From: a virus
DNA: 64,000 nt
Reading direction: 5' to 3' (one strand)
IMG/VR virus record: IMGVR_UViG_3300045243_000070
Location: 8,982 to 72,981 of that record
Shown: positions 8,566 through 32,096 of the stretch, one piece after another
Layout of the letters: each line of letters begins with the position of its first letter
Numbering within the stretch: position 1 is the stretch's first letter
Translations under genes and position numbers: made by a program
Notes under the pieces: generated by a model
What the model saw: only the letters and a program-made list of their open reading frames with translations
What the model was told of the DNA's origin: nothing
Database searches by the model: none

Positions 8566-9435
8566 TTAAACTGGTACGGCTCCCCCTTCTGGAACAGGGG
8601 TTTTTATTTCCCCTGCCGATTGTAACAGCATGTTAACCGCTTTTTGGGCTTGTGAGCAAGCCTTGTAAAGCGTGTCCTCCTTTTCCTTCATCCCTTTGCA
8701 CCATGACGTTATATAGGCCGTGTGTTGCGTGTCATAGTGAAAGCCCACATAAGCGGACAGGAAAGCCCCTCCCATTTCCGCAACTAATTCTTCAAAAGGC
8801 CTTTCCGCTTTATAATCAGTAAAGCTAGGACGGTTTAAACGCTCTTTCGCCCCTGTCCAGTGAATCAATTCATGAAAAACTGTTGAATAATAACCTTCAT
8901 CAGTTTTCCACAACGATTTTTTTGGCACTTCAATGTGAGAGGCATCATTTTTACAAAAAGCAGGGGTTTGTGTAGTTGCGCCATTTTCGATGATCTTAGC
9001 CCCTGATAAGAGGATAATTTTATCCCCTAACACGTTTGGTTTTAATTCCCTTTTGACAATTTCATGGGGTTTCAAACCGTCTACTTGGTCAAGGGAGAAA
9101 ACTACCGAAGTTTTCATGAGGGGAAATTTTTCCTTTTTCCCGTCTTTCATTCTTTCCAACATTTGGAAATAAGAAACACAAAAACCCTTAGCCCCCTTTT
9201 TAACCTGCCCCCCTGCCTCGGTTGCTTGTTTGTAGGTTACGAATTGCCCTGTAGTTAATCCGCTACCCTGCAAACCATAAGCAAGGCCTATCACGTTCAT
9301 TCCCTGATAAGGCCTTTTGCTTTTCCAATTCATAACCTGCTGGTAAAACCAAGGCATTTCCCAAGGCAAAGACCCTTTTTCCATGTCTTTTAAAACCTTG
9401 TCCGCTAATTCCTGCATTTTCGGTGTTAATCTCAT
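8566..9435 (-). CDS. ardC: ArdC-family anti-restriction ssDNA-binding protein with zincin (MPTase) domain
   Basis: LPWEMPW, RPYQGMN, TYKQA..AGGQVKKG (ArdC N-domain); YYSTVFHELIHWTG and FEELVAE zincin motifs. Confidence 0.9.
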   Translation of the reverse strand: MRLTPKMQELADKVLKDMEKGSLPWEMPWFYQQVMNWKSKRPYQGMNVIGLAYGLQGSGLTTGQFVTYKQATEAGGQVKKGAKGFCVSYFQMLERMKDGKKEKFPLMKTSVVFSLDQVDGLKPHEIVKRELKPNVLGDKIILLSGAKIIENGATTQTPAFCKNDASHIEVPKKSLWKTDEGYYSTVFHELIHWTGAKERLNRPSFTDYKAERPFEELVAEMGGAFLSAYVGFHYDTQHTAYITSWCKGMKEKEDTLYKACSQAQKAVNMLLQSAGEIKTPVPEGGAVPV

Positions 9436-13508: not shown

Positions 13509-13959
13509 TCAATTCCCTTTTATTTATTTTTTGGAGCTGGGCTTTCAAGGTGGCCTCAAAATATGCCTTGGTTATTCCCACCCATTCTTTTTCGCTGCCC
13601 TCAGACCTATTTAATTGGTCTATCCCAAAAGAGGAATTGAAGGTGATGCTGAAATAATCCTGGGCCGGGGTTATGTCACCTTCCTGTTTTTGGAATATGG
13701 TGCATTCCAAGACGCCTTCACATCTGGCCCCGGTGATGTGGACCCAGCGCCTGCCCTGGGAGTCCCGATAATACTTCCCAAGGTAGCTTTTTTCGAGAAC
13801 CTTCTTGGCCTGGACATCGGCAATATTGCAGAACTTGTACATTTCACTGTAAAGCTTCTGGTTGGACTTGTAGTCCTTCAGGTATTTCTTCCGAATAGCC
13901 TTATATTTCGTGGCATCTTCCGGTGATAGGTATTTTAAAGGCACTTTGTCAATTTGCAT
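13498..13959 (-). CDS. hypothetical protein (likely start MQIDKV)
   Basis: ORF track; ATG overlapping the end of the MmcB-like gene. Confidence 0.55.
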   Translation of the reverse strand: MQIDKVPLKYLSPEDATKYKAIRKKYLKDYKSNQKLYSEMYKFCNIADVQAKKVLEKSYLGKYYRDSQGRRWVHITGARCEGVLECTIFQKQEGDITPAQDYFSITFNSSFGIDQLNRSEGSEKEWVGITKAYFEATLKAQLQKINKRELSAI

Positions 13960-14437
13960 TGCTTTCCTTCTTTCTGCCCATTTCGTTTTTAAGCCCGATC
14001 TCTGTACGGTAGAAGCTACGAGCCATTTGACCCACAATCGCCCACGTAGGACGAACCTTGTCCCTAAATTCGGCCTGTAGGGTACGTTCTGTCCACAGTC
14101 CAATAGGCCCTTGAGTCACTTCGATCAATCCACACAGGTGTGGTATCTCCTCAGGCTTAATAATGCCTTTTGGGGCCACAAACCAGAACTGGTTACTTAT
14201 TGCCATCGCCATGCGCCTCTTAAGTGGCTTTTTCAGCTCTGAAAGCCAGTCCGCTCTGGACACCTTCACCTCGTAAGAGTGGGCAATCAGGCCATCAGCT
14301 GTAGAACAACTCAAAGCCCACAGGTCAATCTTTCTACCCTCACCCTTATACCCTACACTTCTCATTTCAGTAACGCAAGCCCAGTGAGATGCTGGGTGAA
14401 GTGATTTCAAAGCTCTGATTATTTCTTGAGAAGTCAC
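13949..14437 (-). CDS. MmcB-like PD-(D/E)XK nuclease
   Basis: IDLWAL...YEVKVSRADWLSELKKP...NQFWFVAPKGII.PEEIP..CGLI. Confidence 0.8.
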   Translation of the reverse strand: MTSQEIIRALKSLHPASHWACVTEMRSVGYKGEGRKIDLWALSCSTADGLIAHSYEVKVSRADWLSELKKPLKRRMAMAISNQFWFVAPKGIIKPEEIPHLCGLIEVTQGPIGLWTERTLQAEFRDKVRPTWAIVGQMARSFYRTEIGLKNEMGRKKESNAN

Positions 14438-14451
14438 TCTTGCTGGTTCCT

Positions 14452-14820
14452 TTAAAATCTAGCGGTTACGGATAATTTCTTCCCATCAAATTCTGGGAAC
14501 AACACATCTAGTCCGAGACACACGGATAAAGAGCATCCGGCGCTCAGAGCGAACCTGCCGAGATTAGGTGGGCCATCTAGCCAAGTGAACATTTCAGGTA
14601 AACATCCACCAGCCACGATTACGATTCTCATAGCGTCTGGCTTTATAGCGTTTTCGTTTAAGGTTCCATTGGATTTACCATCCCTATAAACTATGAGATA
14701 AGCTCCATAGCCTACAAGAGAAAACCCAGTGGCTGCTTTAAGACTCATTGGGATTTCATCGGCCTTTAAATAGGTAGGGGACAGAAGTAGGATTAAAGCC
14801 AGCAGAACCTTTTTAATCAT
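14452..14820 (-). CDS. secreted or membrane hypothetical protein
   Basis: signal-peptide-like N-terminus, hydrophobic segments. Confidence 0.6.
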   Translation of the reverse strand: MIKKVLLALILLLSPTYLKADEIPMSLKAATGFSLVGYGAYLIVYRDGKSNGTLNENAIKPDAMRIVIVAGGCLPEMFTWLDGPPNLGRFALSAGCSLSVCLGLDVLFPEFDGKKLSVTARF

Positions 14821-15230
14821 TTTGATTCCTCAGTGGCCCAGATGAGATAGAACCAATCCTCATCACCCATGACAATTTTTATGTCTTTGGCGCTACACGA
14901 GATTTCATTTAACCTTGACACAAGGGAAGCTTGCGTCAAAAACTTTTCGGAATGCCAGACGAGGCATAGTGCCAACATGTAAATTGAGACCCATTTCTTC
15001 ATTTTGATTTCCTCTTTCTTTTTTTATCTAAAGGTTTCCAAGCATCACTGTGAACCAATCTCGACCCTGGAAAATACAGCGGTAATTTTCCATAAGCCTT
15101 TTCGTACCTATACTGAAAAGCTTTTAGCAGAAGCCACACATCGTGTGTAACCTTTTTATTCTCAGCGAACTGAGATTGGTGATACATCGCACACATGGTT
15201 GCGAAAGCGTCACAAATAACTTTTTGTTGG

Positions 15231-15608
15231 TCAATCTTCATAAGGTTCCTCTCCACACTTACTACACATCGCATACCAATCTCCAGGGCCAGCGGGAGTA
15301 TCCGGTTCTTTTTTAGATATAATCTTCCCACCACATCCTTTGACACTACATATTATAATGTTAGGGCTGATAGTATTTAACCTAACCTCAGATATTTTTT
15401 TGCCCTTGAACCCACTCTTAGCCTGTCTACAATCTTCCCCTTTATCACAAATACAGTAATTATCTTTTGATAATTTTATAAACTCAACTTTCATAAACCC
15501 ATCCTCACATTTTTCACAGTCCGTTGGGTAATAGAAGTCATAGCTGTCATCGTCATCCCAATAATCTTCGCTCCGAAAATCATCGGACTCTCTATACCCA
15601 TCACCCAT
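15231..15608 (-). CDS. Zn-finger module protein 3 (acidic N-terminus)
   Basis: CEKCEDGFMKVEFIKLSKDNYCICDKG, plus a second C-terminal Cys cluster. Confidence 0.75.
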   Translation of the reverse strand: MGDGYRESDDFRSEDYWDDDDSYDFYYPTDCEKCEDGFMKVEFIKLSKDNYCICDKGEDCRQAKSGFKGKKISEVRLNTISPNIIICSVKGCGGKIISKKEPDTPAGPGDWYAMCSKCGEEPYED

Positions 15609-15942
15609 TCAACTTCTCCTTGAGCCTGTCTCGAAGCTTATTTCCTTCCAAGCAAGTACAGTAATTATCCTTCGATTCTTTCAAAAAGTCAAGCTTTAAA
15701 ATGCCCTCACTACACTTTACGCAAATCCCCCCAAGTCTGGCAGATAATGAATCTATGATAAAGGCTGAATGGAAAGGTTCCAACATCGTTTCCATCATTC
15801 TACGTTGAATTTCATCCCTATGTCTTGAAAACCTGTAGTATATACTTTCTTTTCCTTCCTGAGCTGCCCAGTCAATTTTTGGAAGTTCCCAATCAACAAT
15901 CCTTTGATTTGCTAAGTCGGCCCAATCGCCTTTCATACTCAT
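15601..15942 (-). CDS. Zn-finger module protein 2
   Basis: CVKCSEGILKLDFLKESKDNYCTCLEG. Confidence 0.75.
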   Translation of the reverse strand: MSMKGDWADLANQRIVDWELPKIDWAAQEGKESIYYRFSRHRDEIQRRMMETMLEPFHSAFIIDSLSARLGGICVKCSEGILKLDFLKESKDNYCTCLEGNKLRDRLKEKLNG

Positions 15943-16583
15943 TTAGAGCCAACTTTCTGCTGTTTTCTCAGCTTTTTACCTTCATCACATTTGCAGTAGT
16001 TGTCTTTTGATTCATTAATATATTCCATCTTCAATAAGCCCTCACTACACTTTGTGCAAGGGCCTGGGTCTGAGTATCTTGAACCAAACCCGTTGAAATC
16101 ATCTACCGTCCCATAACTCATAGGTCTCCCGTACATGACGCTGAGGTCATACTGCCCCCTAGCTATGTATTGGTTAAATTGGGAAGAAAATAACATTGTC
16201 GGCCCATGTGTAAACTCATATCGTGTTCCTGGGTGTGAGCATATTACGGAGCCTACGTGTCTAAATGATTGGACCGTACTACCACAAACATGGCAGAGAG
16301 ATTGAACAATGTCCATTGAGTCTGGGTCTGTAGTTTTTTCTACTAAAAATTTTACATTTAGTGGTTTTTGGTATGGGGAGGAGAAGCCTTGCAAAAAATC
16401 AATACACTCACGCATTCCCCTCGTTGTTCCAGCTGCAGTGTAGATGAAAAAAGTAGTTGAGTTAGATAAGCCCAATAATCCGTTTGGATTATCTACAAAA
16501 TGAATGTCGGTAGGATTAAATCTGTACATCTTACAGACTTGAAAGAAGACATCCATGTTGGGACATATTAAAATTTGTGTCAT
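15939..16583 (-). CDS. Zn-finger module protein 1
   Basis: CTKCSEGLLKMEYINESKDNYCKCDEG. Confidence 0.75.
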   Translation of the reverse strand: MTQILICPNMDVFFQVCKMYRFNPTDIHFVDNPNGLLGLSNSTTFFIYTAAGTTRGMRECIDFLQGFSSPYQKPLNVKFLVEKTTDPDSMDIVQSLCHVCGSTVQSFRHVGSVICSHPGTRYEFTHGPTMLFSSQFNQYIARGQYDLSVMYGRPMSYGTVDDFNGFGSRYSDPGPCTKCSEGLLKMEYINESKDNYCKCDEGKKLRKQQKVGSK

Positions 16584-17164
16584 TGTTTAAATCCTCTAAA
16601 AGTCAGACTTATTCTTTCTCCACATAAAAAGCTTGCTTTCGGAATCCTATGAAGGTGGGTTTCTTGCATTCCCGCACCCATTAATAACAAGCTTCCAGAC
16701 TCTAATTTCTGTTTTTCGATTTTGGTTTTGTCATCGTTAGGACAAAACCATATTTCCCGCTCAGTGCCGAGGCTGATAACAGCTATAGGCTTATTGTCGT
16801 CTATTTCAGGTGAATCGTCCGCATGCCAACCTAGTTGGTCACGATTGTTCAGGTATAGATTTAAGAAGCAAATGTCAAAATGAACTCTCACGGAGTTAAA
16901 AAGCTCACCGAATATGAAATCAATTGACGGAATTGAAATGGATGGCATGTAAGTACGTATTCCAACACCTTTACCATAAGTATATGGGAAGTTTCCAGCT
17001 CGATTGATGTAATACTCTGAACGAGGAGTGAACTCGTGTCTTTTCCATTGAAGATTAATTCTCAAATCTTCAAATAACCCAGTTGGGTCTTGTATAAATT
17101 TAGACGTGTATTTTACGGGTGCGTTTACCATTTTTCTTAACTCTTTTTCTGTTATACTTCCCAA
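16580..17164 (-). CDS. alkB: AlkB-family 2OG-Fe(II) dioxygenase
   Basis: FLNLY...LGWHADD (HxD), ISLG..R, HRIPK, RISLTFR. Confidence 0.9.
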   Translation of the reverse strand: MGSITEKELRKMVNAPVKYTSKFIQDPTGLFEDLRINLQWKRHEFTPRSEYYINRAGNFPYTYGKGVGIRTYMPSISIPSIDFIFGELFNSVRVHFDICFLNLYLNNRDQLGWHADDSPEIDDNKPIAVISLGTEREIWFCPNDDKTKIEKQKLESGSLLLMGAGMQETHLHRIPKASFLCGERISLTFRGFKQ

Positions 17165-17604
17165 TCATTTTTCTAACCCAATTCTCTGAAACACCTTTAG
17201 GTATTTCTATCCGAATCATTTTTTCAGTAGGTGTTATATCCACGGCGCACTTTAGAGTCAATATACCTGTCTTCTTATTCTCCACAGCTTCCGCACCTTT
17301 GACATCTACCTTAAAACCATGTCTAAGGAACCAAGCATAGTCTTTGGAGTTTTTAGCTTTCTCATAGTCAGACTCCAGATAAGCTTTCATCATTTTATGT
17401 TCATCTCCCTAAGTCTGGACGCACAATTGTGGGTATCTCCAAAAGCCCAATCAAATAAACGACCTAGCCATCCGATGTCAGCGTTACACCTCTGGCAGTG
17501 GTGGCTCGGATATTTTGGTAGATCAAATCCTAGCTTTAAATAACACGGAGTGCAATACGTGTTCATTGGGGATGTTGGTCTTCCACACTTAATACATTCT
17601 TGTC

Positions 17605-17868
17605 TCATACTGCCCTCATGTACTGTACCATCTGTGGGTCCTCTTTAGACTCAATACCAGAACCTTTACACTCATCGCATACTTCTTCTCTGTCGCAGTT
17701 CTTACCACATGCCGTATCTGTGCAGTCGGGGGCATGGACTTTAATCTTTTTCGACCCCTTACATCTGGAGCAATAAACTTGGTACGAACCCATACCCCAA
17801 GTTGCGTACATTTGGTATGTTGTAGATGACGATGCCGTACCAGATGTTGTTCCCAAAAATGTTGACAT
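17605..17868 (-). CDS. DnaJ-type Cys-rich Zn-finger protein
   Basis: CSRCKGS...CDECKGSG (CxxCxGxG). Confidence 0.6.
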   Translation of the reverse strand: MSTFLGTTSGTASSSTTYQMYATWGMGSYQVYCSRCKGSKKIKVHAPDCTDTACGKNCDREEVCDECKGSGIESKEDPQMVQYMRAV

Positions 17869-18520
17869 ATTTTCCTCTAAAAAAGAAACTTTGGTTCAGT
17901 CATAACGGGGGTGTACTCCGCTTCACGGTATCTTGCAGCCCTAAGAGTGATTCTCCCGGTTGAAAGTAGTTCCTCGCAACTGTGGCAAAGTAGATGACCA
18001 AAATCAGTCATCGAAACAGCCTTATTAAAACACGCATGCCCAACCGGGGTTTCACCAATATACCTATTTTGGTCAATGAGCCCATCGCATCTGCACATTT
18101 GGTTTACTGGGAATATTTTTAGCTTCATTAAACCTCGATTGTTTCAAAATACTTTCTATCGTCTTCGTCCCATTCATTTCTGTAGATTACTTCTGCTTCC
18201 TCGCTTCCAGCCAAGTAAGCTCTTTTAAAACACTTATGGTGATAGTAAGCATCCCACTCAAAACTGAAAGACCACTTATCGTGATCCCCGTCTTGGTGGC
18301 AAAACCAACACCCTCCTTGGCTTGGGAAAGATTTAGCCATTACTAAGCCTTTTTCTTGCTTGGTGGGACTAAGTAGAACACGTTATTGTGGTCCCTCATG
18401 TGAGTTTCCACAATCTCCTTAGTATCTTCCATCGTTGGTTGGGCGATACCAAAATTTTGTTTACAAACCGTGCAGCTGAGTAGTGTGTAATCTCCTTTTG
18501 GATTTACCTTATCTTCCATT

Positions 18521-18826
18521 TTATACCCACTTAACTTTTATTTTAAAGCCTTTTGCCTTTTCAATCAACTTGGTCAGAGCGTTTGGCGATGGGGCTATTA
18601 CTTCTTTCTCCTCATCAAACGTAGTAGTCGGCCCACCATTCTCTTTGTACTTGGCTACCAGGAGGGTGATAGACTCCTGCATTCTTTTTTCCGTGAACCC
18701 AAGGTCACACATCTTTCTGACAACCATCCCATAAGAGAAGCACACATCATTTGGAGAATCCAAATTTTGAAGCATAAGGTAAATAGCTTTTAGGTTGTCT
18801 ATCTTTTTGAACTGCTCTTCGTTCAT
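18521..18826 (-). CDS. hypothetical protein
   Basis: translationally coupled ORF in the minus-strand run. Confidence 0.6.
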   Translation of the reverse strand: MNEEQFKKIDNLKAIYLMLQNLDSPNDVCFSYGMVVRKMCDLGFTEKRMQESITLLVAKYKENGGPTTTFDEEKEVIAPSPNALTKLIEKAKGFKIKVKWV

Positions 18827-19533: not shown

Positions 19534-19899
19534 TTAGTTTTCATCTTCTTTCATTTCCACACTATATCCAACCAAGTTTTGTTTTTCATATGTGTAAACA
19601 CTTTCACCAATAGTGATTATTAGCTCCGACTCAGTGTCTACGAGTGTGTATTTCCTGAATTGAGTAGCGTCCAAGCCGGAAGCGTGAACAGTTAGGACTT
19701 TGGAGTATGTTTTCGGTGTTTCGGTAGGTGTGGGCTCAGGTGTAGCTTCTGGCTCTTGGGGTTGCGACTTTGGAAGTGCTTGCTCCTGAGAATTGCCGTC
19801 ATCGTCATGATACTTGTGGTGATTCTCATTGTTGCCACATCCCTGCGACACTATTCCTATAAGCATCAGCAAACAAACGAGCATTACATTCTTTTTCAT
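19534..19899 (-). CDS. putative lipoprotein
   Basis: MKKNVMLVCLLMLIGIVSQG-C lipobox-like signal, then a P/E/T-rich linker; GGGAG RBS. Confidence 0.65.
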   Translation of the reverse strand: MKKNVMLVCLLMLIGIVSQGCGNNENHHKYHDDDGNSQEQALPKSQPQEPEATPEPTPTETPKTYSKVLTVHASGLDATQFRKYTLVDTESELIITIGESVYTYEKQNLVGYSVEMKEDEN

Positions 19900-20109
19900 G
19901 AGTCTCCCTTTTATGTCCAAATCCACAAATACAGCACCTAATCATCCCTCCGGTATCGTATTTGTGGTAACTGAAACTACCTTCTTGTCCACAACCAAAA
20001 CAATGATCGAAAAACAATTTTCCATACATTGGGCCACATTCAACGCAAGTTTCCCAAGGAGTAACACAATGGTAGCACTCTAGCTGTCCAAAACAATCCC
20101 TAGTAACTC

Positions 20110-20334
20110 TCATAGAACATCCTCTTTAATTTCGTCCCAAAAAAGACCTATCCCTAGAAATACTCCGAGCAATACACAGAACCAAACGGACAAAGCGTTG
20201 TTGGTCCCATAGTCTCTATCCAATGAAGACAGCATACCATCAACCACCCCCAATGTCAAGGAGAAAAACAATAAAATAAACACACGAAATTGATACCAGC
20301 CCCGGTCTGAAAAAGAAGGGTTTCTTCTAGGCAT
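20110..20334 (-). CDS. two-TM membrane protein
   Basis: two hydrophobic helices. Confidence 0.6.
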   Translation of the reverse strand: MPRRNPSFSDRGWYQFRVFILLFFSLTLGVVDGMLSSLDRDYGTNNALSVWFCVLLGVFLGIGLFWDEIKEDVL

Positions 20335-20772
20335 TTTGACCCTCTAGTTTAGGCGATTCAATAAGTCTTTGGATATCATCATCCAGGTCTTGAACCCGAA
20401 TGATGACTCCACAAGACTCACCCTTTTCATTATGTGTTTGTAATACTCCTACCCTGTCATTTGCGTCCATAACCCCTCATTTACATAAATCGTTATACTT
20501 CCACTCGTACTCTTTCAGTCTCTTTATCTCTTCCCTTAACTTTTCTATGTCATCGACCTCTTGAACCGGAGGAGGTTCAACCTCTTCATCACAATCAGAA
20601 CATACCCATCCGATATCTACCCACTTATCACTGTCTTTTACAAACTCGTGGAATCTGGCTTGGTGTGAACACTTTTCTTCGGGAAGCACAAGCCTATGGT
20701 CACCACCAATGGCGTGATTTTTATGATTGTAAGGTTCGTGGCAAAAATCACAAATAATTATTTTTTCAGAAC

Positions 20773-21171
20773 TCATCGTTTTGAAACTCTCTGTCTATTA
20801 AAAATAACCGCCATCATGTGACGCAGCTCTTTTACTGGTGAGGATTTCTTATCTTTTTGAACTCTCTCTGCTGTCCAGTACTTATCATTTTCGTGTCTCC
20901 CATACCAAGGAACGGCATGTTCGTGGTAACACTCCATGAGCCCGCCAAATTCAAAACACTCCCCATCTTGAAACTCATCTCTAATCCAAACACAGGCTTC
21001 TTTACATATAGCGTGTTGCTTATAACTGGAGAACTCTCCGTCCCAAACCCCAGAACACACAACGTACTTTTCACCGGGGTTAATTACAACCCCACACTCA
21101 CAACATCTATGTGATTTCCTGGCGGTTGGGGTATCCATTTTATATATTTCTGGTACGGAGCAATCAGTCAT
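20773..21171 (-). CDS. conserved Cys-rich phage protein
   Basis: ARKSHRCCECGVVINPGEKY...GVWDGEF. Confidence 0.75.
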   Translation of the reverse strand: MTDCSVPEIYKMDTPTARKSHRCCECGVVINPGEKYVVCSGVWDGEFSSYKQHAICKEACVWIRDEFQDGECFEFGGLMECYHEHAVPWYGRHENDKYWTAERVQKDKKSSPVKELRHMMAVIFNRQRVSKR

Positions 21172-21174
21172 TTC

Positions 21175-21672
21175 TTACCTCACACTGAATAAACAAGCAT
21201 CGGCATCTTCGGGGAATGGGAACCCAAGACTGGCACAACCCATCCACCCCTTACGTATTTTTCTAGCCAAATCCCAGCTGAGCTTTCTAGCATGACCGTT
21301 ACTCAGGTCTCTACGATTCCACATCAACATTTTCGCAGAGTCGAAAGTCTTCACATCAGCCAGACTTGCTGGTTCCACGATGACATTATCGTAGGGGGCC
21401 ATTCGACCAACGCAAAGAACGTAGTCGGCCCCAGCTTTGAACGAAGCTTCAACACTTTCGTTAGTCCTGTGGATACCCTTAGCCATGATTATTTTGTCGG
21501 TCATACCTCTAGCCATGCGAAGGGTTTCCAACGACCCTCCCCACGGCTCTTCGGTATGAATCGAAATCCAATCACCCTGTTCGATGGCTTTCTTAATGAG
21601 CTCTTCCATCGGGAGCCAAGATATGACACCCTCCCACGGGGATTTCTTTTTCGCTTCAGCTATGCGTATCAT
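21175..21672 (-). CDS. minimal indole-3-glycerol-phosphate synthase (TrpC)-like TIM-barrel protein
   Basis: IAEAKKKSP (cf. IAEvKkaSPS), ISIHTEEPWGGSLETL (cf. SVLTE..F.GSl..L), GADYVL, NRRDL (cf. NNRDL), ADACL. Confidence 0.75.
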   Translation of the reverse strand: MIRIAEAKKKSPWEGVISWLPMEELIKKAIEQGDWISIHTEEPWGGSLETLRMARGMTDKIIMAKGIHRTNESVEASFKAGADYVLCVGRMAPYDNVIVEPASLADVKTFDSAKMLMWNRRDLSNGHARKLSWDLARKIRKGWMGCASLGFPFPEDADACLFSVR

Positions 21673-22109
21673 TAGTCGATACTGTAAATTGATTCGAGTG
21701 CATGACCATACTTTGTGGTCAAACGAATTCGGTCAGCTTGGGTAAGTAATCCCATACGGTCTGGGGATAGGTTATCAAAGATATCGTGAATCTTGACTTC
21801 TCTGGCATCGTGGTTACGCTTCACTCTGCCGTAATACTGGTCTCTTGATTCGTCTTTCTTATAGGTCATCGCCTCTACGCCTTCGACCACACGCTCTGGA
21901 AATCCAGCACTTCTAAGATTATCGATAGTAACTGAGGTGTCTTCCACAACGTCATGGAGTACAGCGATAGCCATAAGATAGGGGTCTTTGAAGGTAGCCA
22001 TTACACGCAAGGGGTGAAGGATGTAGGGCATGCCAGACTTGTCCATCTGTCCCTGATGGGCCTGTACAGAAACTTCAACCGCTTTACCTACCATTTCCCA
22101 TTGGTTCAT
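21672..22109 (-). CDS. RelA/SpoT-type HD hydrolase (Mesh1/small alarmone hydrolase-like)
   Basis: AHQGQMDKSGMPYILHP, LHDVVEDT, VKIHDIFDN. Confidence 0.85.
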   Translation of the reverse strand: MNQWEMVGKAVEVSVQAHQGQMDKSGMPYILHPLRVMATFKDPYLMAIAVLHDVVEDTSVTIDNLRSAGFPERVVEGVEAMTYKKDESRDQYYGRVKRNHDAREVKIHDIFDNLSPDRMGLLTQADRIRLTTKYGHALESIYSID

Positions 22110-22429
22110 TGTTCGTTCTCCAGTCTTCGTCTTTCTAGCTCTACGAGTGTTTCGGCTATTTCCTCGACCGACCCGTTCTTTACGACAGCCTCTCCATTCA
22201 CTTTGATGTGAGAAAAGTCCGTCTCTTTCAACCCGCATTTCTTAACCACTAGCGGTGTCACTATCACATTGTACCCAGAAGTGATGTACTTGTCAACAAG
22301 TTCTTTTACATTATCTGGAGGTATCTCGATTTTAATAAGAATTATATCCCCTTCAGGTTTTACGTCTGGGTCCTCAAAAAACACCATTATTAGGTTATGA
22401 GCCTCGGATAGCGCTATATTCAACAACAT
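22106..22429 (-). CDS. hypothetical protein
   Basis: coupled ORF in the run. Confidence 0.55.
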   Translation of the reverse strand: MLLNIALSEAHNLIMVFFEDPDVKPEGDIILIKIEIPPDNVKELVDKYITSGYNVIVTPLVVKKCGLKETDFSHIKVNGEAVVKNGSVEEIAETLVELERRRLENEQ

Positions 22430-25758: not shown

Positions 25759-26868
25759 TTATTCCTTGTAGTGCTCCAAGAACTTGTTGGATACAACCTT
25801 GAAGGACACACGGCCCTTCATGTAGTCGCTGTATTTCTCCACGAGCGGACGGAACACAATCCCCTCTCTTGGAGTTCCGTTGGCATAGGAGCCATCAGCC
25901 ATAGCCAGCATTTCATCAAACTTGCGTCCAGTGAAGTCGAAATTGGAGTCAATAATCTCGACAGTCTGTAACCCCAATTCTTTGGTGAAGGAAATGAACT
26001 CATCAAAGTTAAGATGTCTGCGTTCAGAGATGTTGAACACATTGAACACAAAGAAGTCAACCTCCTTCAAGCCCATCTTGTTGCCTTGGATGCCAGGACC
26101 GCAGATTTCACCTTGGACGGCGTAATTTCCTTTGGCCTTAAGCTTATCAAGGATGTTGTATTTCTGTTCCATTTGGAAGTACACGTTTGGCTTATCCCCC
26201 TCAATTGGAGCCTTGAGAGACAGTTTGCGTGAGCAGACGTGTTGTTCACCATCCGTCAGTCCATCCGGCAAGAAGTTGATGTAGGTTGCTGAGGTTCCAT
26301 CCATCTTGACGGAAGCGTAACCCTTGACCCCATTAAGCTCTTCCAGAATTCGTGAGCAGTTTTGAAGACGTTCTTCGTCCGTAACTGACACGTATTTGGT
26401 GGGGAAGTTACCCTTAATCTTTCCATGTAGGTTGGCGGGAATAGGTTTCTCATACTTGGTAACACCAATGAGGGTGGTGATGTCATCACCGACCAGCATT
26501 CCTGCGAACCCAACGGTTCCAGTCGATAAACCTTCAATCCCAGGTTCTTTTTTTAAATCTGTCAGCTGGATGATAAGCCCCTGAGAGAGTTGTTTCTTCA
26601 GGCGAATGGTGCGGACACGGAAGTGACTCTTCCGTAAAAATTCGGACCACGGGGCTTCTGGAACTACAGTATCAATGGCAATAAAACATACTAGGTCTCC
26701 AACCTTATGCAATTCTTTCTGAACAACCACCTGCCATTCATTGTCTTCCATTTTAGCCAGTTCTATCTTATCAGCATCGGGTATTGGGCTAAGGGATTTA
26801 ATTTTTTGAATAGTGGCTAAATTTTTAACCACCTCTACTGTTTCTACAGTCTCTGAAACTTCACTCAT
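25759..26868 (-). CDS. RNA ligase, DRB0094/Rnl2-like family
   Basis: LATIQKI..PIPDADKIE N-domain; motif I KMDGTS; QGEICGPGIQGN; REGIVFR; FKVVSNKFL. Confidence 0.9.
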   Translation of the reverse strand: MSEVSETVETVEVVKNLATIQKIKSLSPIPDADKIELAKMEDNEWQVVVQKELHKVGDLVCFIAIDTVVPEAPWSEFLRKSHFRVRTIRLKKQLSQGLIIQLTDLKKEPGIEGLSTGTVGFAGMLVGDDITTLIGVTKYEKPIPANLHGKIKGNFPTKYVSVTDEERLQNCSRILEELNGVKGYASVKMDGTSATYINFLPDGLTDGEQHVCSRKLSLKAPIEGDKPNVYFQMEQKYNILDKLKAKGNYAVQGEICGPGIQGNKMGLKEVDFFVFNVFNISERRHLNFDEFISFTKELGLQTVEIIDSNFDFTGRKFDEMLAMADGSYANGTPREGIVFRPLVEKYSDYMKGRVSFKVVSNKFLEHYKE

Positions 26869-27245
26869 TGTAAATACTCCTTTGCTTTTTGTAATAATTC
26901 AACGCTATCTCTAAATAAACCTAATCCAGAATTACACCGATGGCATAAAATTCCACGAATATTCCCAGTCTTGTGGTCGTGGTCTATACAAGCTCTACCT
27001 TCAGTACCTTTTCCACGAACCTCTCTTTTTAATGGGTAGCCACATATCCCGCATCTCCCACGAAAAGCTTGATATAAGGCCTCAAAATATTCCTCATCTA
27101 TTCCATACTTTTTTAAATAACCCCATTGTTTTTTATACTCACTTAAAGTTCCAGTTCGTATCATCCTACTTAAACAATGACATTTTCGACACCTTTTCCC
27201 CCATGTCATCGTGGAGCAACCAAGGCATTTTTTCTTCTTACTCAA
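26865..27245 (-). CDS. endonuclease VII-like HNH endonuclease
   Basis: KKYGI...CGIC...IDHDHKTGNIRGILCHRCNSGLGLFRD. Confidence 0.9.
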   Translation of the reverse strand: MSKKKKCLGCSTMTWGKRCRKCHCLSRMIRTGTLSEYKKQWGYLKKYGIDEEYFEALYQAFRGRCGICGYPLKREVRGKGTEGRACIDHDHKTGNIRGILCHRCNSGLGLFRDSVELLQKAKEYLQ

Positions 27246-28120
27246 ATAAATGTTCCATCTCCAACGTCAATGACGTTTATTTTTTCCGTTCTGAGCATTT
27301 CAATAACACTCACCCGGTCATCAAACCAAAATTTAATCTTGCTCTTATCCAAAAGCCTATCAATGAACTGCTTCTTCACGACAGTGTCTGGACGAGTGTC
27401 TTTAGACGGCCTCATGATGAACCTGTCTGGCTCGATATTATACTTATAAAGCCACTCTTCACGAACTTGACGATAATCCTCAGAGCACCCAGATACAATA
27501 ATCAAGTCCAGCCCATTCGCTTGGTGACGAAGAACCGTTTCAATAATGTCAAGACGTGGTGCATCGTTAATGCTTTGACGAGAGAACTCGTCCCAATCCG
27601 GTTTCTTTCCAGTAGACTTATCGACCAGATAACGTCTTTTACTGACATCACACAGAGTCCCATCAAGATCACTGACTACACAATTGTTGGTAGACCTCAA
27701 TATGTTATACCTGAAAGCTGTGTTTAATATAGTGTCTTTACCAACAAAGCGTTTTCCAGAAAACTGTCTATCTAAATCCCTCTCAATACACTCTCTAACC
27801 GGGGTGTCTACTTTGACTTCCTCAAAGTCGGCATTGTACCTCTCAGCCAACACCTTGTAGGCGGTAGCATTTGACGGAGCTAAGTTCATATTATCAATGA
27901 CCACGTTGTGGCCCTGGCTCAAGAGGTGTTCAACCATGAACTCATTGGCGAGGTGAATCATCTTCTCGTGTCTTGGGTCAAAATTCTCAAAATACATCAT
28001 CTTGCGTAGACTGTCTTTGTTCACGCAAAACGTGTTTCGGTTTTCCTTCACGATCTTTTGAGCAATTGTGGACTTACCACTGCCTTGAAGACCTTGGAGC
28101 ATCCAAATTTTTAATTTCAT
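27242..28120 (-). CDS. pseT: polynucleotide 5'-kinase/3'-phosphatase (T4 PseT-like)
   Basis: P-loop GLQGSGKST; HAD DLDGTL, RPSKDTRPD, FDDR. Confidence 0.92.
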   Translation of the reverse strand: MKLKIWMLQGLQGSGKSTIAQKIVKENRNTFCVNKDSLRKMMYFENFDPRHEKMIHLANEFMVEHLLSQGHNVVIDNMNLAPSNATAYKVLAERYNADFEEVKVDTPVRECIERDLDRQFSGKRFVGKDTILNTAFRYNILRSTNNCVVSDLDGTLCDVSKRRYLVDKSTGKKPDWDEFSRQSINDAPRLDIIETVLRHQANGLDLIIVSGCSEDYRQVREEWLYKYNIEPDRFIMRPSKDTRPDTVVKKQFIDRLLDKSKIKFWFDDRVSVIEMLRTEKINVIDVGDGTFI

Positions 28121-28137
28121 TTCTTCCTACCGATTTA

Positions 28138-28251
28138 TTATAGACAACAAATAGCTAAAAATATCAACCAACCCCAGCCTTCCTTACCATACCACGCCAG
28201 AAAAATAGCTCCGGCAGTCGCCAATAGTGCAATCCACCAAGACCCTTTCAT
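28138..28251 (-). CDS. 37-aa two-helix membrane micropeptide
   Basis: GGAGG RBS; MKGSWWIALLATAGAIFLAWYGKEGWGWLIFLAICCL. Confidence 0.55.
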   Translation of the reverse strand: MKGSWWIALLATAGAIFLAWYGKEGWGWLIFLAICCL

Positions 28252-28260
28252 GAGTCCTCC

Positions 28261-29430
28261 TTAAGTATTTTTGCTCACCTTATGAATCATTTCCAGAAGA
28301 GAGTCATCCCGAAGCCCCATCAAATACTCTTTCAAACTGTACAGACAGGTCTTGTTATCATAAAGAGCGAAGAGAGTGTTTGGAAAGGACTTTTTGTAAG
28401 CTTCGATAGCAAAAGCCTTCCGGTTAATTTTTACTTCCCAAGTCTGGTTATCTGCTGGCATTTCTCTCCAGTCCGCACGAATAGTATCCTCTACTTTTTG
28501 TAATCCGTCAAGTAGTTTCTGAATATGGGCTGTGTATTCTGGGAAATAGGCCAAAGTATCGTCCACTTTCCCCAACTTAATCACCTCTAAGAAGCCTTTC
28601 TCTGAAACAGAGGAAACCATTTTAGACAAGGCTAGGTACGCAGGGTTCTTGCACTTGACACGCAAGTGGGAACCGTTGTTTTGTTCCTTTACAATCACAT
28701 AACCCTCAAACGTAGGGTCTTTGGAGCTCATATCCTCAATCTCGGTCCATTCAGATACTGGAAATGTTTTGACCAAATCACACTTAAAAACATCTGCCAT
28801 AGTTTGAAGCTCGTGTCTTGTTACTTCGCACAGGTTTTCGTTGCTACGAATAGTTAGAAGAGTTATTTTTGTTTCTTTGTATGGAGTAACTATTCTATTT
28901 TCTGGGCTAGTGAGCTCAAAAACATAGGTGCATCTTGGATTAAGTAATTTGTTTTCTATCAAATACTCTAACTTTGTCCCATTATCAACACCATCCATAA
29001 AAAGTTCCGCAAAGCTCTTAGAGGAACAGTTATTAACAGGCCCCTCGGCATAAATCATGTTTCTAGTGCTGAAATGCCACGAATTGGCAATACGGTCAAA
29101 CCACATATTGACCATTGTTCCATCAAGTTTCTCTAAAACCAAACAACCGCTCAGGTCTTCTGGAAGTTTGTCGGCCCCGCCCTCCCCTAAGTTGAAGAAA
29201 CGTGAGAACCCATAAGAAGCAATATCATAATTGTCTTTGTACAGAATAAGACCACGGCACTCCCTAACAATGGGGTCACCTTTGAACTTATAGCTGTCAA
29301 TCATATCGTATGAAAATATGAACTTGCCACCCAGCTCTTTGAAATTGATTCCAAGAGGGGCGCAAATTTCTTCGGGTGTCTTTCCAGACCGTAGAGCTTC
29401 TTGTATTTTTAACATGTTATATCCTACCAC
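28261..29430 (-). CDS. RNA ligase 1 (T4 Rnl1/RnlA-like)
   Basis: RECRGLIL, RFFNLGE, EKLDGT, FELTSPENRIV, EGYVI, RVKCKNPAY. Confidence 0.9.
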   Translation of the reverse strand: MVGYNMLKIQEALRSGKTPEEICAPLGINFKELGGKFIFSYDMIDSYKFKGDPIVRECRGLILYKDNYDIASYGFSRFFNLGEGGADKLPEDLSGCLVLEKLDGTMVNMWFDRIANSWHFSTRNMIYAEGPVNNCSSKSFAELFMDGVDNGTKLEYLIENKLLNPRCTYVFELTSPENRIVTPYKETKITLLTIRSNENLCEVTRHELQTMADVFKCDLVKTFPVSEWTEIEDMSSKDPTFEGYVIVKEQNNGSHLRVKCKNPAYLALSKMVSSVSEKGFLEVIKLGKVDDTLAYFPEYTAHIQKLLDGLQKVEDTIRADWREMPADNQTWEVKINRKAFAIEAYKKSFPNTLFALYDNKTCLYSLKEYLMGLRDDSLLEMIHKVSKNT

Positions 29431-29445
29431 AAGATAGCTACGGTG

Positions 29446-30582
29446 TCAAGCATTTTCTTTTCTAAGGTCTGTGCTAGAAACATGCTCGTATTTTCGTGGT
29501 TCCAGAACCCACTCCCCAGGCAAGACCGTATCTCCTGTACCCCACAGACCTAAGGCCTTGCCGTTACTTCTTGGGAAGATGTAAAAATAGTTTCTGTTAC
29601 CAGTGAACATCGAGCAAACATACTCAATGGACCCAGCATACTTAGGGTTCAGGATTCTCTCGTAGGTGTCATAACCAATGATGAACTTTGCATCATGAAA
29701 CAGTCTGGACTTCTCTACGAATGTCGGTGCATTGGTTATCAGCATAGGCATGCCATTTTGAACCAGTCTGTCTCTAATTGAGATAAAGTCAACCGCAGGC
29801 TTGTCAACGTTGGCAATACTTATTTCTTGAATAACTTTGCAACCCCTACGAGCAACTATTTCCATCATCTCACGATGTCCGCTATGCGTGGGATTAAAGC
29901 TTCCTGGGAATATGGCTGTACGGCTGTCCACGTAGTTTGAGAGGTCGAGGGTATCGGTTCCGACAAAACCTTGAAACTTTATTTCCCCACTTAAGATTTT
30001 ACCAAGCTTCTCGTTCTCGAACCAATCGTATTCTATGGACTGCATTACAGGCGTATCCAACCTAACCTGTAATTCAAGGTCGTGACCATTGGCGAGTTCG
30101 TTTAGAATAAGATTAGTAGCTATCTCTTCTTCCCAAATTCTAACAACCTCTGCGTTTTGATCTTTCGTACCTTTAATCTTAAAACTCATGGTGTGGGTCA
30201 TATTTTTAGTCTGAAGAGCGACATAGATAGCATGCTCACGTCCCTCACGCTCAGAAGGTACACGTTGTAGGCTTGCTGTACAGGCCACACCTATGACCTC
30301 ATAGTCCCCATCACGAAGCTGGAGGGCTTTTTGATAAGCCACCATAGCTAATGACCGAGCCACTTCACCGCTCACCATCTTTTCGGGAACTTTTCCCAAA
30401 AGAGTGGAGGTTTCTTTAGTGCTGTATGGGACGTACCCAGCCAGCAAAGTATTGGACCCATTACCACGGTTGAGGAGAGCCTGGAAAACTCCAGACCCTC
30501 CACCAGTCGTGATTATGACGGCCTTATGAGTAGCTAACCCATTAAGTGTGTCGACTACTTCTTCCTGAGTCCTGATACCCAT
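29446..30582 (-). CDS. fusion of a CinA/PncC-like domain and an NMN/NaMN adenylyltransferase-like domain
   Basis: N-terminal TGGG, GYVPYS, VSGEVARSLA, GVACTA; C-terminal FPGSFNPTHSGH (HxGH), IGYDT, VSSTDLR. Confidence 0.8.
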   Translation of the reverse strand: MGIRTQEEVVDTLNGLATHKAVIITTGGGSGVFQALLNRGNGSNTLLAGYVPYSTKETSTLLGKVPEKMVSGEVARSLAMVAYQKALQLRDGDYEVIGVACTASLQRVPSEREGREHAIYVALQTKNMTHTMSFKIKGTKDQNAEVVRIWEEEIATNLILNELANGHDLELQVRLDTPVMQSIEYDWFENEKLGKILSGEIKFQGFVGTDTLDLSNYVDSRTAIFPGSFNPTHSGHREMMEIVARRGCKVIQEISIANVDKPAVDFISIRDRLVQNGMPMLITNAPTFVEKSRLFHDAKFIIGYDTYERILNPKYAGSIEYVCSMFTGNRNYFYIFPRSNGKALGLWGTGDTVLPGEWVLEPRKYEHVSSTDLRKENA

Positions 30583-32096
30583 TAGAGACCTTTCTTAGTG
30601 ACCAACCCGGCGATTTTGTGATACATCTGAGTCGAAATAGCGTCCCCATGAGCCGGGACAATAGTCATTAAGGTATTGATACGGGCTTTGAGTTCATCAA
30701 ATGTAAGCCATTTGATATCCACGGGGCCTTTATCATAAACAACCTGCAACATGTTCTTATCGACTTCTGTTTCCGCAGGATAAACCTTAAGGCTCAAAGT
30801 GTCCTTATCGGCTGCGACTTTCATAATGCCGGGGAGCGAATACTTCCCCTTGTCGTCCGAAGGGCGCTTCATGATGTCAAGAGTCGCTCCAGTATTGTAG
30901 GTAATGTGGCTCAGCTTAGTAGCCATCGAGAGAGTATCCCGGTTTAGTTTCTGAAGCAACCCGGCTCCCATTCCGAAAGCGATATTCTCGGCGCTGAAGC
31001 CAGCCTTCTCAGCAGCGTCCAAGATTTTACCAATCTCGGTGATGGTGATTCCATCACCCTGAATGACCGCAGCGTTGTTGATAACTTTGTATCCCTTTTT
31101 ATTGAGGACGGTTCCAAAAGCTTTCTCAGCAGCGTGTAGGCCTTGAAGAACACATTCCACGGGGTCGCCCGAATCTGGTCGAAGAACCCACAGGCCGAAC
31201 TTCCCAGCAAACTTCTGGGCCACGGCTGGAACAATCTTATCCAAAAAGTTGGTGTAGTTGTAGCTATCACCAACGGTGGCGAAGATTCCAAGCTTATTGA
31301 CCAGTTCGTTTTGTCCAAACATCTGCATCATGCGTTCCACAGCTTCTTGTTCTGTGGCATAGCTTGTCATGACCGAGTGCTCAGTAGCTGGGATGCTGGT
31401 AGCTACGGGACGGCCCTCGTTCAGGTGGAACTGGGCGTAGTAAGCAGCCGACATAGTGTCCGACCCGCCGAAGTTAAGTAGGTGAGCAACACCGCCGATT
31501 ACCGCTTGCTCTTGCGAGGTGCATCCACGATACCCAAAGTCGTGGAGACGGCTGTCGAGCTTCCAGAAGCTCTCAGGGTCAACCGTTTTTTGAAAAAATC
31601 CCTCGATGAGGGTTCTGGCGTGACGGCTGAGGGTAGCCACTGTCGTGGGATACCAAATCATCGTCAGCAAGGTCTCAAGATAGGTGCAAAGATGGGCGTA
31701 GGGGGCTTCCGCAGTGATTTGATAGATAGGAGTATGTGGGTAGATAACCGAACCCTCTTCGAGAGCTTCCACTTTGATTGGGAAGTAACCGTTGTTTTCT
31801 TTTATGAATTTCAAGAACAGGTTTTTGGGGAAGGGATATGGAGTGAAAGCAGCATTGTGGGTTTGGAAGAACTTGTCGGCTTCCTCGACTTCTTCCACAG
31901 TCCACTTATGATTCAAAACGTTTTCAACGATGTAGCGGATTCCAAAAAACACGATGCGGTCATCGTCAATGCCGGGATAAGCTTTTCGTAGCTCCCCGTA
32001 GGCCACCATCTTTTCTGCATTCGGGTACATCATGTAATGACCTGCCTTGTAGCTATCCGTCCGAACCGGGAATGGAATATCGTTGATGCTTTTCAT
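30582..32096 (-). CDS. nadV: nicotinamide phosphoribosyltransferase (NAMPT)
   Basis: TDSYKAGH, LHDFGYRG, IPATEHS, DSY, LRPDSGDP, IQGDG, FGMGAGLLQKLNRDT. Confidence 0.93.
   Translation of the reverse strand: MKSINDIPFPVRTDSYKAGHYMMYPNAEKMVAYGELRKAYPGIDDDRIVFFGIRYIVENVLNHKWTVEEVEEADKFFQTHNAAFTPYPFPKNLFLKFIKENNGYFPIKVEALEEGSVIYPHTPIYQITAEAPYAHLCTYLETLLTMIWYPTTVATLSRHARTLIEGFFQKTVDPESFWKLDSRLHDFGYRGCTSQEQAVIGGVAHLLNFGGSDTMSAAYYAQFHLNEGRPVATSIPATEHSVMTSYATEQEAVERMMQMFGQNELVNKLGIFATVGDSYNYTNFLDKIVPAVAQKFAGKFGLWVLRPDSGDPVECVLQGLHAAEKAFGTVLNKKGYKVINNAAVIQGDGITITEIGKILDAAEKAGFSAENIAFGMGAGLLQKLNRDTLSMATKLSHITYNTGATLDIMKRPSDDKGKYSLPGIMKVAADKDTLSLKVYPAETEVDKNMLQVVYDKGPVDIKWLTFDELKARINTLMTIVPAHGDAISTQMYHKIAGLVTKKGL

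Follow-up and report, generated by a model that had tools for sequence, protein, structure and literature searches.

Three consecutive, overlapping genes on the minus strand of the IMG/VR virus record IMGVR_UViG_3300045243_000070 each encode one copy of a short cysteine module, which, to judge from the searches reported here, defines a domain family that is real, very rare and so far undescribed. The genes occupy positions 15231-16583 of a 64,000-nucleotide stretch of that record (its positions 8,982 to 72,981; referred to here as the window, to which all coordinates apply, with (-) denoting the minus strand), and their products are 214, 113 and 125 amino acids (aa) long. Tentatively, and with somewhat less than even confidence, we read the element as a zinc-stabilised recognition module that would bring different domains to one shared ligand, be it nucleic acid or protein. 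The locus had been singled out in a first-pass annotation, made by a model from the letters of the window and its open reading frames (ORFs), which described the module as a constant docking tag on variable payloads.

A cysteine module shared by three overlapping genes

The three genes and their copies of the module, the latter located by regular expression, profile and alignment alike, are the following:

15939-16583 (-): gene 1, 214 aa; alpha/beta domain, CxxC..CxH site, variable linker, module, basic tail
15601-15942 (-): gene 2, 113 aa; Trp-rich N-terminus (W-E-L-P-K-I-D-W), predicted helices, C-terminal module
15231-15608 (-): gene 3, 125 aa; acidic D/Y-rich N-terminus, internal module, linker, second zinc ribbon
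15978-16058 (-): module copy 1 (C176 to G202); 15942-16058 with the basic tail to the C-terminus
15643-15723 (-): module copy 2; 15604-15723 with the basic tail
15438-15518 (-): module copy 3 (gene 3 residues 31-57)

Each gene holds a single copy of the pattern C-x-K-C-x2-G-x2-K-x8-S-K-D-N-Y-C-x-C-x2-G. When all six frames of the 72,981-bp contig were scanned by regular expression, the string SKDN[YFW]C occurred exactly three times, once per gene and always inside CxxCxxG-x11-SKDNYCxC, and a profile search of the same contig returned only these three places at an expectation value (E) of up to 10, with E between 4e-23 and 6e-20 (values that are not independent, as the profile had been built with the three copies themselves). 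The first-pass observation that the module occurs once in each of the three overlapping genes is thus borne out, with no fourth copy in the contig. A chance origin is excluded: over all six frames of 73 kb, the expected count of one given hexapeptide is about 0.002. Between pairs of paralogues, 54-57 of the 81 nucleotides (nt) of module DNA are identical, and among the 15-18 residues that a pair has in common, 8-10 are written with different codons. Codon differences at shared residues therefore mark the copies as an old duplication kept by purifying selection, unlike a recent DNA repeat.

An alignment of 12 sequences (the three window copies and nine foreign carriers, described below) gives the family-wide pattern C-x2-C-x2-G-x(11)-S-[KE]-D-N-[YW]-C-x-C-x2-G, over a core of about 27 residues. 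Ten of its 43 columns are invariant in all 12 sequences (C6, C9, C27, C29, G12, S22, D24, N25, G32 and R36), K23 is nearly so, and the cysteine spacing C-x2-C-x17-C-x-C is constant. The string SKDNYC, initially called invariant, is so within this genome, whereas the family at large has S-[KE]-D-N-[YW]-C. C6, C9, C27 and C29, present in 12 of 12 members, are arranged as two knuckles with four cysteines (Cys4), and would most likely bind zinc. The same pattern suggests a fold that opens with a CxxC knuckle, continues through a hydrophobic, strand-like stretch and a polar turn, and ends in a basic helix that begins with the CxC pair; in the AlphaFold2 (AF2) model of the 214-aa protein, a low-confidence helix spans residues 200-212, immediately behind C199. 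The tail that follows the CxC pair is net basic (+1 to +5) in 11 of the 12 sequences. Conservation of the S-K-D-N-Y run between the cysteine pairs, together with that of R36, would seem to exceed what four metal ligands need.

Module identity between classes is 31-71% overall, and the remainders of the proteins cannot be aligned. Specifically, it is 63% between the 113-aa and 214-aa proteins, 63% between the 113-aa protein and its counterpart P0002, and 66% between the 214-aa protein and its counterpart P0006, so that likeness across classes is about the same as likeness within them; the module of the 125-aa class is somewhat more distant (43-54% identity).

Searches of known domains and structures left the module unrecognised, as the first-pass annotation had found it. 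Pfam returned no family at E<=1 for the three proteins, and when the 12 modules were scanned singly at E<=10, no family was found in more than two of them; the Pfam gathering score was reached by none of the 12 modules and none of the 12 full proteins. The best zinc-ribbon match, to PF17848, was confined to one member of the 12 (P0009), at E 0.0006 on the module alone and E 0.0026 on the whole protein (18.3 bits, under the cut-off of 24.5). PHROGs gave no match for the 113- and 214-aa proteins and a best E of 0.076 for the 125-aa protein; NCBIfam and PADLOC held nothing significant for the module proteins; profile searches of PDB chain sequences stayed at chance (best E 1.5 for the module and 0.52 for the 214-aa family); and in the ESM Atlas the 214-aa protein had no usable match, with module scores of at most 0.84, the level of chance. 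The central repeat of DnaJ does not account for the module either: its motifs are CxxCxxG and CxCxxG, not CxxCxGxG, and PF00684 was matched by neither the three proteins nor the modules. The string SKDNYC is also absent from about 8.4 million full texts.

Relatives of the module and the parts it is joined to

The foreign carriers come from a HMMER search of 1.84 billion protein representatives with a four-row profile. At E<=0.001 this search returned 13 proteins, namely two of the window proteins, a fragment of 29 residues identical to the end of the 214-aa protein, a protein of 1736 aa (P0011) that matched only the non-module part of the profile, and nine foreign carriers of the module. Searching metagenomic proteins with a model of the module had been recommended in the first-pass annotation, and the nine carriers represent several partner contexts. 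Every one of them is the sole member of its cluster and derives from a metagenome assembly, with a contig of 60.7 kb for P0005 and contigs of 0.8-2.5 kb for the other eight. Word-indexed searches of 5.8 billion proteins returned P0002 and, apart from it, nothing but the three window proteins; no further relatives appeared in IMG/VR, JGI metagenome contigs or GTDB genome contigs; and tblastn of the 214- and 125-aa proteins (the 113-aa protein being left out) against GenBank phages gave chance matches only (E>=0.1).

Three of the carriers (P0006, P0007 and P0008) are orthologues of the 214-aa protein, with N-terminal parts that match at E 8e-23 to 2e-35 and an invariant C-x2-C...C-x-H site. The 113-aa protein has an orthologue in P0002 (112 aa), which is 40% identical to it, matches in its N-terminal part at E 3e-8 and shares the motif W-[ED]-[LV]-P-K-I-D-W, and the 125-aa protein has one in P0013, with the same layout, an acidic D/Y-rich start and the second zinc ribbon. 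Other short Tyr/Asp-rich starts are found in P0014 and P0010, and another short start in P0009. Each of the three window architectures is, by these matches, conserved as its own orthologue group in other metagenomic phages, and the trio is therefore not a set of redundant, decaying copies. The remaining carrier, P0005 (181 aa), is a hybrid, in which a CxxC..CSHP hairpin as in the 214-aa class and a pre-module segment as in the 113-aa class are followed by the module. In full-length BLASTP it matches the two classes at 3e-18 and 8e-18, and without the module at 13 bits (E 0.004 at Z=1000; a weak counterpart of the 214-aa metal site) and 7.8 bits. It may be a fusion or an ancestral form.

Outside the module, the N-terminal parts of the trio are mutually dissimilar (BLASTP E>=0.4 in a four-sequence set), and class-specific profiles fail to find the other classes. 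The earlier description of the N-termini as unrelated therefore stands, with P0005 as a weak hint to the contrary, and of the two observations named beforehand as speaking against the tag idea, a match to a known domain and homology of the N-termini, neither was made. The modular layout is likewise upheld in that a constant module sits on unrelated N-termini, in at least five N-terminal contexts among the 12 sequences; it needs amending for the 125-aa protein, in which the module is internal (residues 31-57) and a second zinc ribbon comes after it. The partner parts that can be delimited in the window are:

16329-16583 (-): flavodoxin-like alpha/beta domain of gene 1, residues 1-85, as predicted with AF2, VIA-align and BFVD
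16224-16301 (-): second putative metal site of gene 1, C97-x2-C100...C115-x-H117, residues 95-120, invariant in four of four orthologues
15252-15350 (-): second zinc ribbon of gene 3, C87-x4-C92...C115-x2-C118, conserved with P0013 (C-terminal parts E 5e-15)

The N-terminus of the 214-aa protein had been characterised as alpha/beta plus cysteines. An alpha/beta domain is indeed predicted (AF2 block-mean predicted local distance difference test (pLDDT) 69-89 over residues 1-82, in the order beta-alpha-beta-alpha-beta-alpha-beta), and the cysteine part can be refined to the invariant C97-x2-C100...C115-x-H117. Compared by VIA-align with 48,161 PDB chains, this domain had its best Z of 7.0 with the CikA pseudo-receiver (2j48; root-mean-square deviation (rmsd) 2.8 for 77 residues), followed at Z 5-6 by many mutually unrelated flavodoxin-like folds, among them receiver, TIR, IspH and helicase sub-domains; no receiver or TIR sequence-family match was found in Pfam or NCBIfam. 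As modelled, the domain is a generic flavodoxin-like match which names no function. In BFVD it is most like certain phage proteins of 75-93 aa that are themselves uncharacterised (E 0.01-0.12, with probabilities reaching 0.99 and a template modelling score (TM) by target of 0.54-0.63), and these suggest that the domain also stands alone in other phages. A Foldseek search of the PDB with the 214-aa model found nothing at E<=0.001, and its thymidine kinase rows were rejected (rmsd above 11, TM 0.2). The AF2 model of the 113-aa protein is helical but unreliable (pLDDT 51.5), and the start of the 125-aa protein is low-complexity, acidic and aromatic. A complex prediction that combined the 113- and 125-aa proteins, the C-terminal half of the 214-aa protein and four Zn scored 0.00 and gave no answer, and is neutral on binding.

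The surrounding gene block and its phage

The trio is flanked by two genes on the same strand:

16580-17164 (-): AlkB-like 2-oxoglutarate-Fe(II) oxygenase gene, upstream neighbour of gene 1, matched in Pfam and PHROGs
14999-15241 (-): downstream gene, 80 aa from ATG 15241, with an 11-nt overlap with gene 3 and GGAGAGGAA before the ATG

The upstream gene is, by its matches and motifs, a genuine AlkB-like oxygenase and not an equivalog of E. coli AlkB. Its E values are 2.6e-19 with PF13532 (70.6 bits, the cut-off being 31.2) and 1.1e-60 with phrog_21963 'alkylated DNA repair', and its translation shows H-A-D, a later His and R-x-S-x-T-x-R, whereas against the NCBIfam AlkB equivalogs it reaches 19-20 bits, with cut-offs of 231 and 267. 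The longest ORF, from TTG 17164, overlaps the upstream 97-aa ORF (17100-17393) by 65 nt; ATG 17131 is the more likely alkB start, because the PHROG alignment begins at residue 13. As an IMG/VR query the window AlkB had zero pattern matches. The downstream 80-aa gene has zero family matches.

The overlaps amount to 4 nt between alkB and gene 1, 4 nt between genes 1 and 2, and 8 nt between genes 2 and 3. Gene 1 starts at ATG 16583, which overlaps the stop of the AlkB-like ORF as ATGA and has AGAGGA 8 nt upstream; the ATG of gene 2 overlaps the stop of gene 1, again as ATGA; and ATG 15608 of gene 3 is preceded by AAGGAG at 7 nt. The idea of a single gene split by frameshifts was rejected, as there are three separate starts, ribosome-binding sites for genes 1 and 3, and separate orthologues of the same length. 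Short overlaps (4, 8 or 11 nt) occur at most junctions of the minus-strand block from 19191 down to 14452, with similar ones both upstream of the trio (17605-17608, 17390-17393 and 18823-18826) and downstream of it (15231-15241, 14999-15002 and 14817-14820). Since short overlaps are general in this gene block, the link of the trio to AlkB is weak: of the translational coupling downstream of alkB that had been proposed, the 4-nt ATGA overlap remains, but it is not special to alkB. On the minus strand from 17164 to 15000 there are zero terminator-like sites, and the genes are tightly packed in one block; the scans counted 16 promoter-like and 10 terminator-like sites in all, in line with the 16.1 and 7.7 that shuffled sequence gives.

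Other genes of this region include a 162-aa ORF three genes downstream of the trio (13949-14437, (-)), which matches phrog_5429 'DNA repair protein' at 2.4e-32 and thus places a second repair-type gene in the same block as alkB. Just upstream of alkB, four small Cys/His-rich ORFs lie at 17390-18340 (-): one of 72 aa with a sub-threshold match to the Pfam double zinc ribbon (DZR, E 2e-4), one of 87 aa with DnaJ-like CxxCxGxG motifs (E 0.0024, under the cut-off), and two of 83 and 70 aa without a family. Three Cys-rich ORFs of 95, 99 and 132 aa are found at 19826-21171 (-); the stretch CFGCGQEG...CCICGFG in the first of these, picked up by a loose regular expression, was rejected as a module copy, as the contig profile finds only three copies. 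A 188-aa ORF at 21672-22238 (-) contains H-x3-R...H-D-V-V-E-D, which resembles a (p)ppGpp-hydrolase-type HD domain in a translation read by eye only. RNA ligases at 25759-29430, which count among the nucleic-acid repair genes of the surrounding block, match phrog_968 at 2.4e-63 and phrog_562 at 2e-52, and the region 25759-32096 (-) also holds a nicotinamide phosphoribosyltransferase (phrog_448 at 3.4e-112) and a 378-aa ORF without a PHROG match. The bin 30001-32000 has the highest GC content of the window (0.484 against about 0.41-0.44).

The virus record, of which the window is a part, is linear, and its completeness is estimated by CheckV at 42%. Genes for a major head protein, a tail sheath and a baseplate protein are present in it, along with two RNA ligase genes and one for a nicotinamide phosphoribosyltransferase. 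The head protein shares 42-45% identity with its counterparts in SPO1-like Bacillus phages (e.g. SP-10 and CP-51), and the phage is therefore a distant uncultured relative of Herelleviridae-type myoviruses. Contigs of two soil metagenome runs, which belong to two studies, contain DNA identical to 14400-17400, one run being possibly the source of the record; with zero differences in these contigs, they offer no population variation for selection testing. No RNA sequencing runs containing this DNA are listed, and blastn of window positions 14000-18000 against GenBank phages found no match.

Nine IMG/VR loci of kin phages were found through the capsid protein, the best being 82% identical. The module profile had no match in five kin-phage records, and AlkB and one RNA ligase as queries had none in three of the five, all of these records being fragments that are 16-54% complete; the closest kin record, by a coordinate estimate, stops short of the equivalent region, so that the negative carries no weight. 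On an IMG/VR contig of 46,169 bp (L004), whose head protein is 82% identical, neither alkB nor one RNA ligase nor the module found a match. Close kin may have different early regions, or the L004 fragment may simply have no coverage there.

What the module may do

In the zinc-stabilised reading that we favour, the core and the short basic helix that follows it would form one small independent domain, stabilised by one metal ion, most likely zinc, held by the four invariant cysteines, and its layout (CxxC knuckle, beta-hairpin, CxC pair at the start of a helix) would be zinc ribbon- or treble clef-like. The domain would bind one common ligand (nucleic acid, or a single phage or host protein), and three partners would be brought to the same place early in infection, i.e. 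the flavodoxin-like alpha/beta domain with its CCCH site, the Trp-rich helical segment, and the acidic Asp/Tyr-rich segment with its second zinc ribbon. A shared ligand is suggested by (i) conservation beyond the four ligands, (ii) equal constraint across the classes, (iii) the basic tail and (iv) three non-redundant architectures. Metal binding, the fold and the binding of a shared ligand are what we infer, as is any link to AlkB, and several points weigh against the reading as a whole. Conserved polar residues in very small zinc domains can be purely structural; AF2 pLDDT is below 60 over the module in both models (113-aa family and 214-aa protein); the tail is short, and its charge small, in several members (+1 in P0002 and P0009, 0 in P0013); and the family is tiny, with 12 sequences among the 1.84 billion representatives, its relatives being known from proteins and not from gene neighbourhoods.

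Known Cys4 zinc ribbon and treble-clef mini-domains (e.g. the AccD zinc ribbon, PF17848) resemble the module in having two cysteine pairs about 17 residues apart, with a CxxC knuckle and then a hydrophobic strand-like stretch, and in being small and fused to varied partners. They differ from it in that the second pair of the module is CxC and not CxxC, that the invariant S-K-D-N-Y and G-x3-R are unique to the module family, and that 11 of its 12 members match no zinc-ribbon model. The C4 fingers of the GATA and DksA/TraR types share with the module the CxxC-x17-Cys spacing followed by a basic helix or tail, which in those fingers contacts nucleic acid or RNA polymerase. The likeness is one of layout only: Pfam gave no such match at E<=10, and the module has a CxC knuckle and other motifs.

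A doubtful but possible alternative is a history of tandem paralogues, in which two duplications of an ancestral small zinc protein were followed by divergence of the copies or by their gain of new N-termini, the module being only a structural clasp and the proteins having separate targets. The trio genes are adjacent and in the same orientation, the many other small Cys-rich ORFs of the early region suggest that zinc clasps are common there, and P0005 weakly hints, through the 13 and 7.8 bits that it retains without the module, that genes 1 and 2 share more than the module. Plain paralogy is, however, at odds with cross-class homology that is never significant outside the module, with conservation of the module well beyond the four ligands, and with a module likeness that is about the same across classes as within them, which fits one shared constraint.

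Unlikely, in our estimate, is a homotypic assembly, in which the three proteins, made in a fixed ratio, would join through their modules into a hetero-oligomer, possibly with AlkB. Overlapping start and stop codons do suggest coupled synthesis, but such overlaps are general in the gene block. All three proteins have a single module in common, and P0005 might represent parts of two partners fused together; as a rule, however, Cys4 mini-domains this small act as monomeric binding units. Highly improbable is that the four cysteines bind iron in the manner of rubredoxin, or form redox dithiols, and that the proteins supply or protect the Fe(II) centre of the AlkB-like oxygenase: the adjoining Fe(II)/2-oxoglutarate oxygenase gene and the two cysteine pairs would suit this role, yet no rubredoxin or thioredoxin-like family was matched at E<=10 (Pfam, modules), rubredoxin knuckles are CxxCG and differ from the module pattern, and three carriers for one cofactor role would seem uneconomical.

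The recognition module that we favour may also be put in a bolder and rather unlikely form, namely as a domain dedicated to docking in one small clade of soil myoviruses, a zinc-held tag by which at least five effector bodies would be drawn to one and the same machine of host or phage. Candidates for that machine would be damaged nucleic acid processed with AlkB, or the host transcription or translation apparatus; the bodies might comprise a putative alpha/beta enzyme, a Trp-rich helical protein and an acidic protein resembling DNA mimics. To our knowledge, the internal proteins of phage T4 are the clearest phage case of one tag with different payloads, and they too come from neighbouring genes with a short constant segment on different bodies. 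The T4 capsid-targeting tag is N-terminal, about 10 residues long, cleaved, without metal, and used for packaging, whereas the module is a 40-residue Cys4 domain, C-terminal or internal, in a block of early or repair-type genes, and nothing about it suggests packaging.

The docking or adaptor role that the first-pass annotation proposed is plausible at most; the same annotation had also proposed a polymorphic effector system. Polymorphic toxin and effector systems do combine a constant domain with variable domains, but this part of the proposal finds no support: the variable parts here are conserved orthologue groups and not fast-shuffling cassettes, the genome is that of a lytic-type myovirus, and neither the trio nor the 80-aa (14999-15241) and 97-aa (17100-17393) genes yielded a domain for toxicity, secretion, trafficking or immunity with Pfam, PHROGs, NCBIfam or PADLOC.

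The general importance of the family is modest, as it comprises 12 sequences, all from uncultured phages, with the window's own from soil. If the docking-domain reading were true, the three genes would represent a compact phage 'adaptor set', an organisation undescribed for early phage genes, and the list of zinc fingers would gain a mini-domain not described before. Such a shared docking domain would also provide a handle on the targets of several uncharacterised early proteins of these phages.

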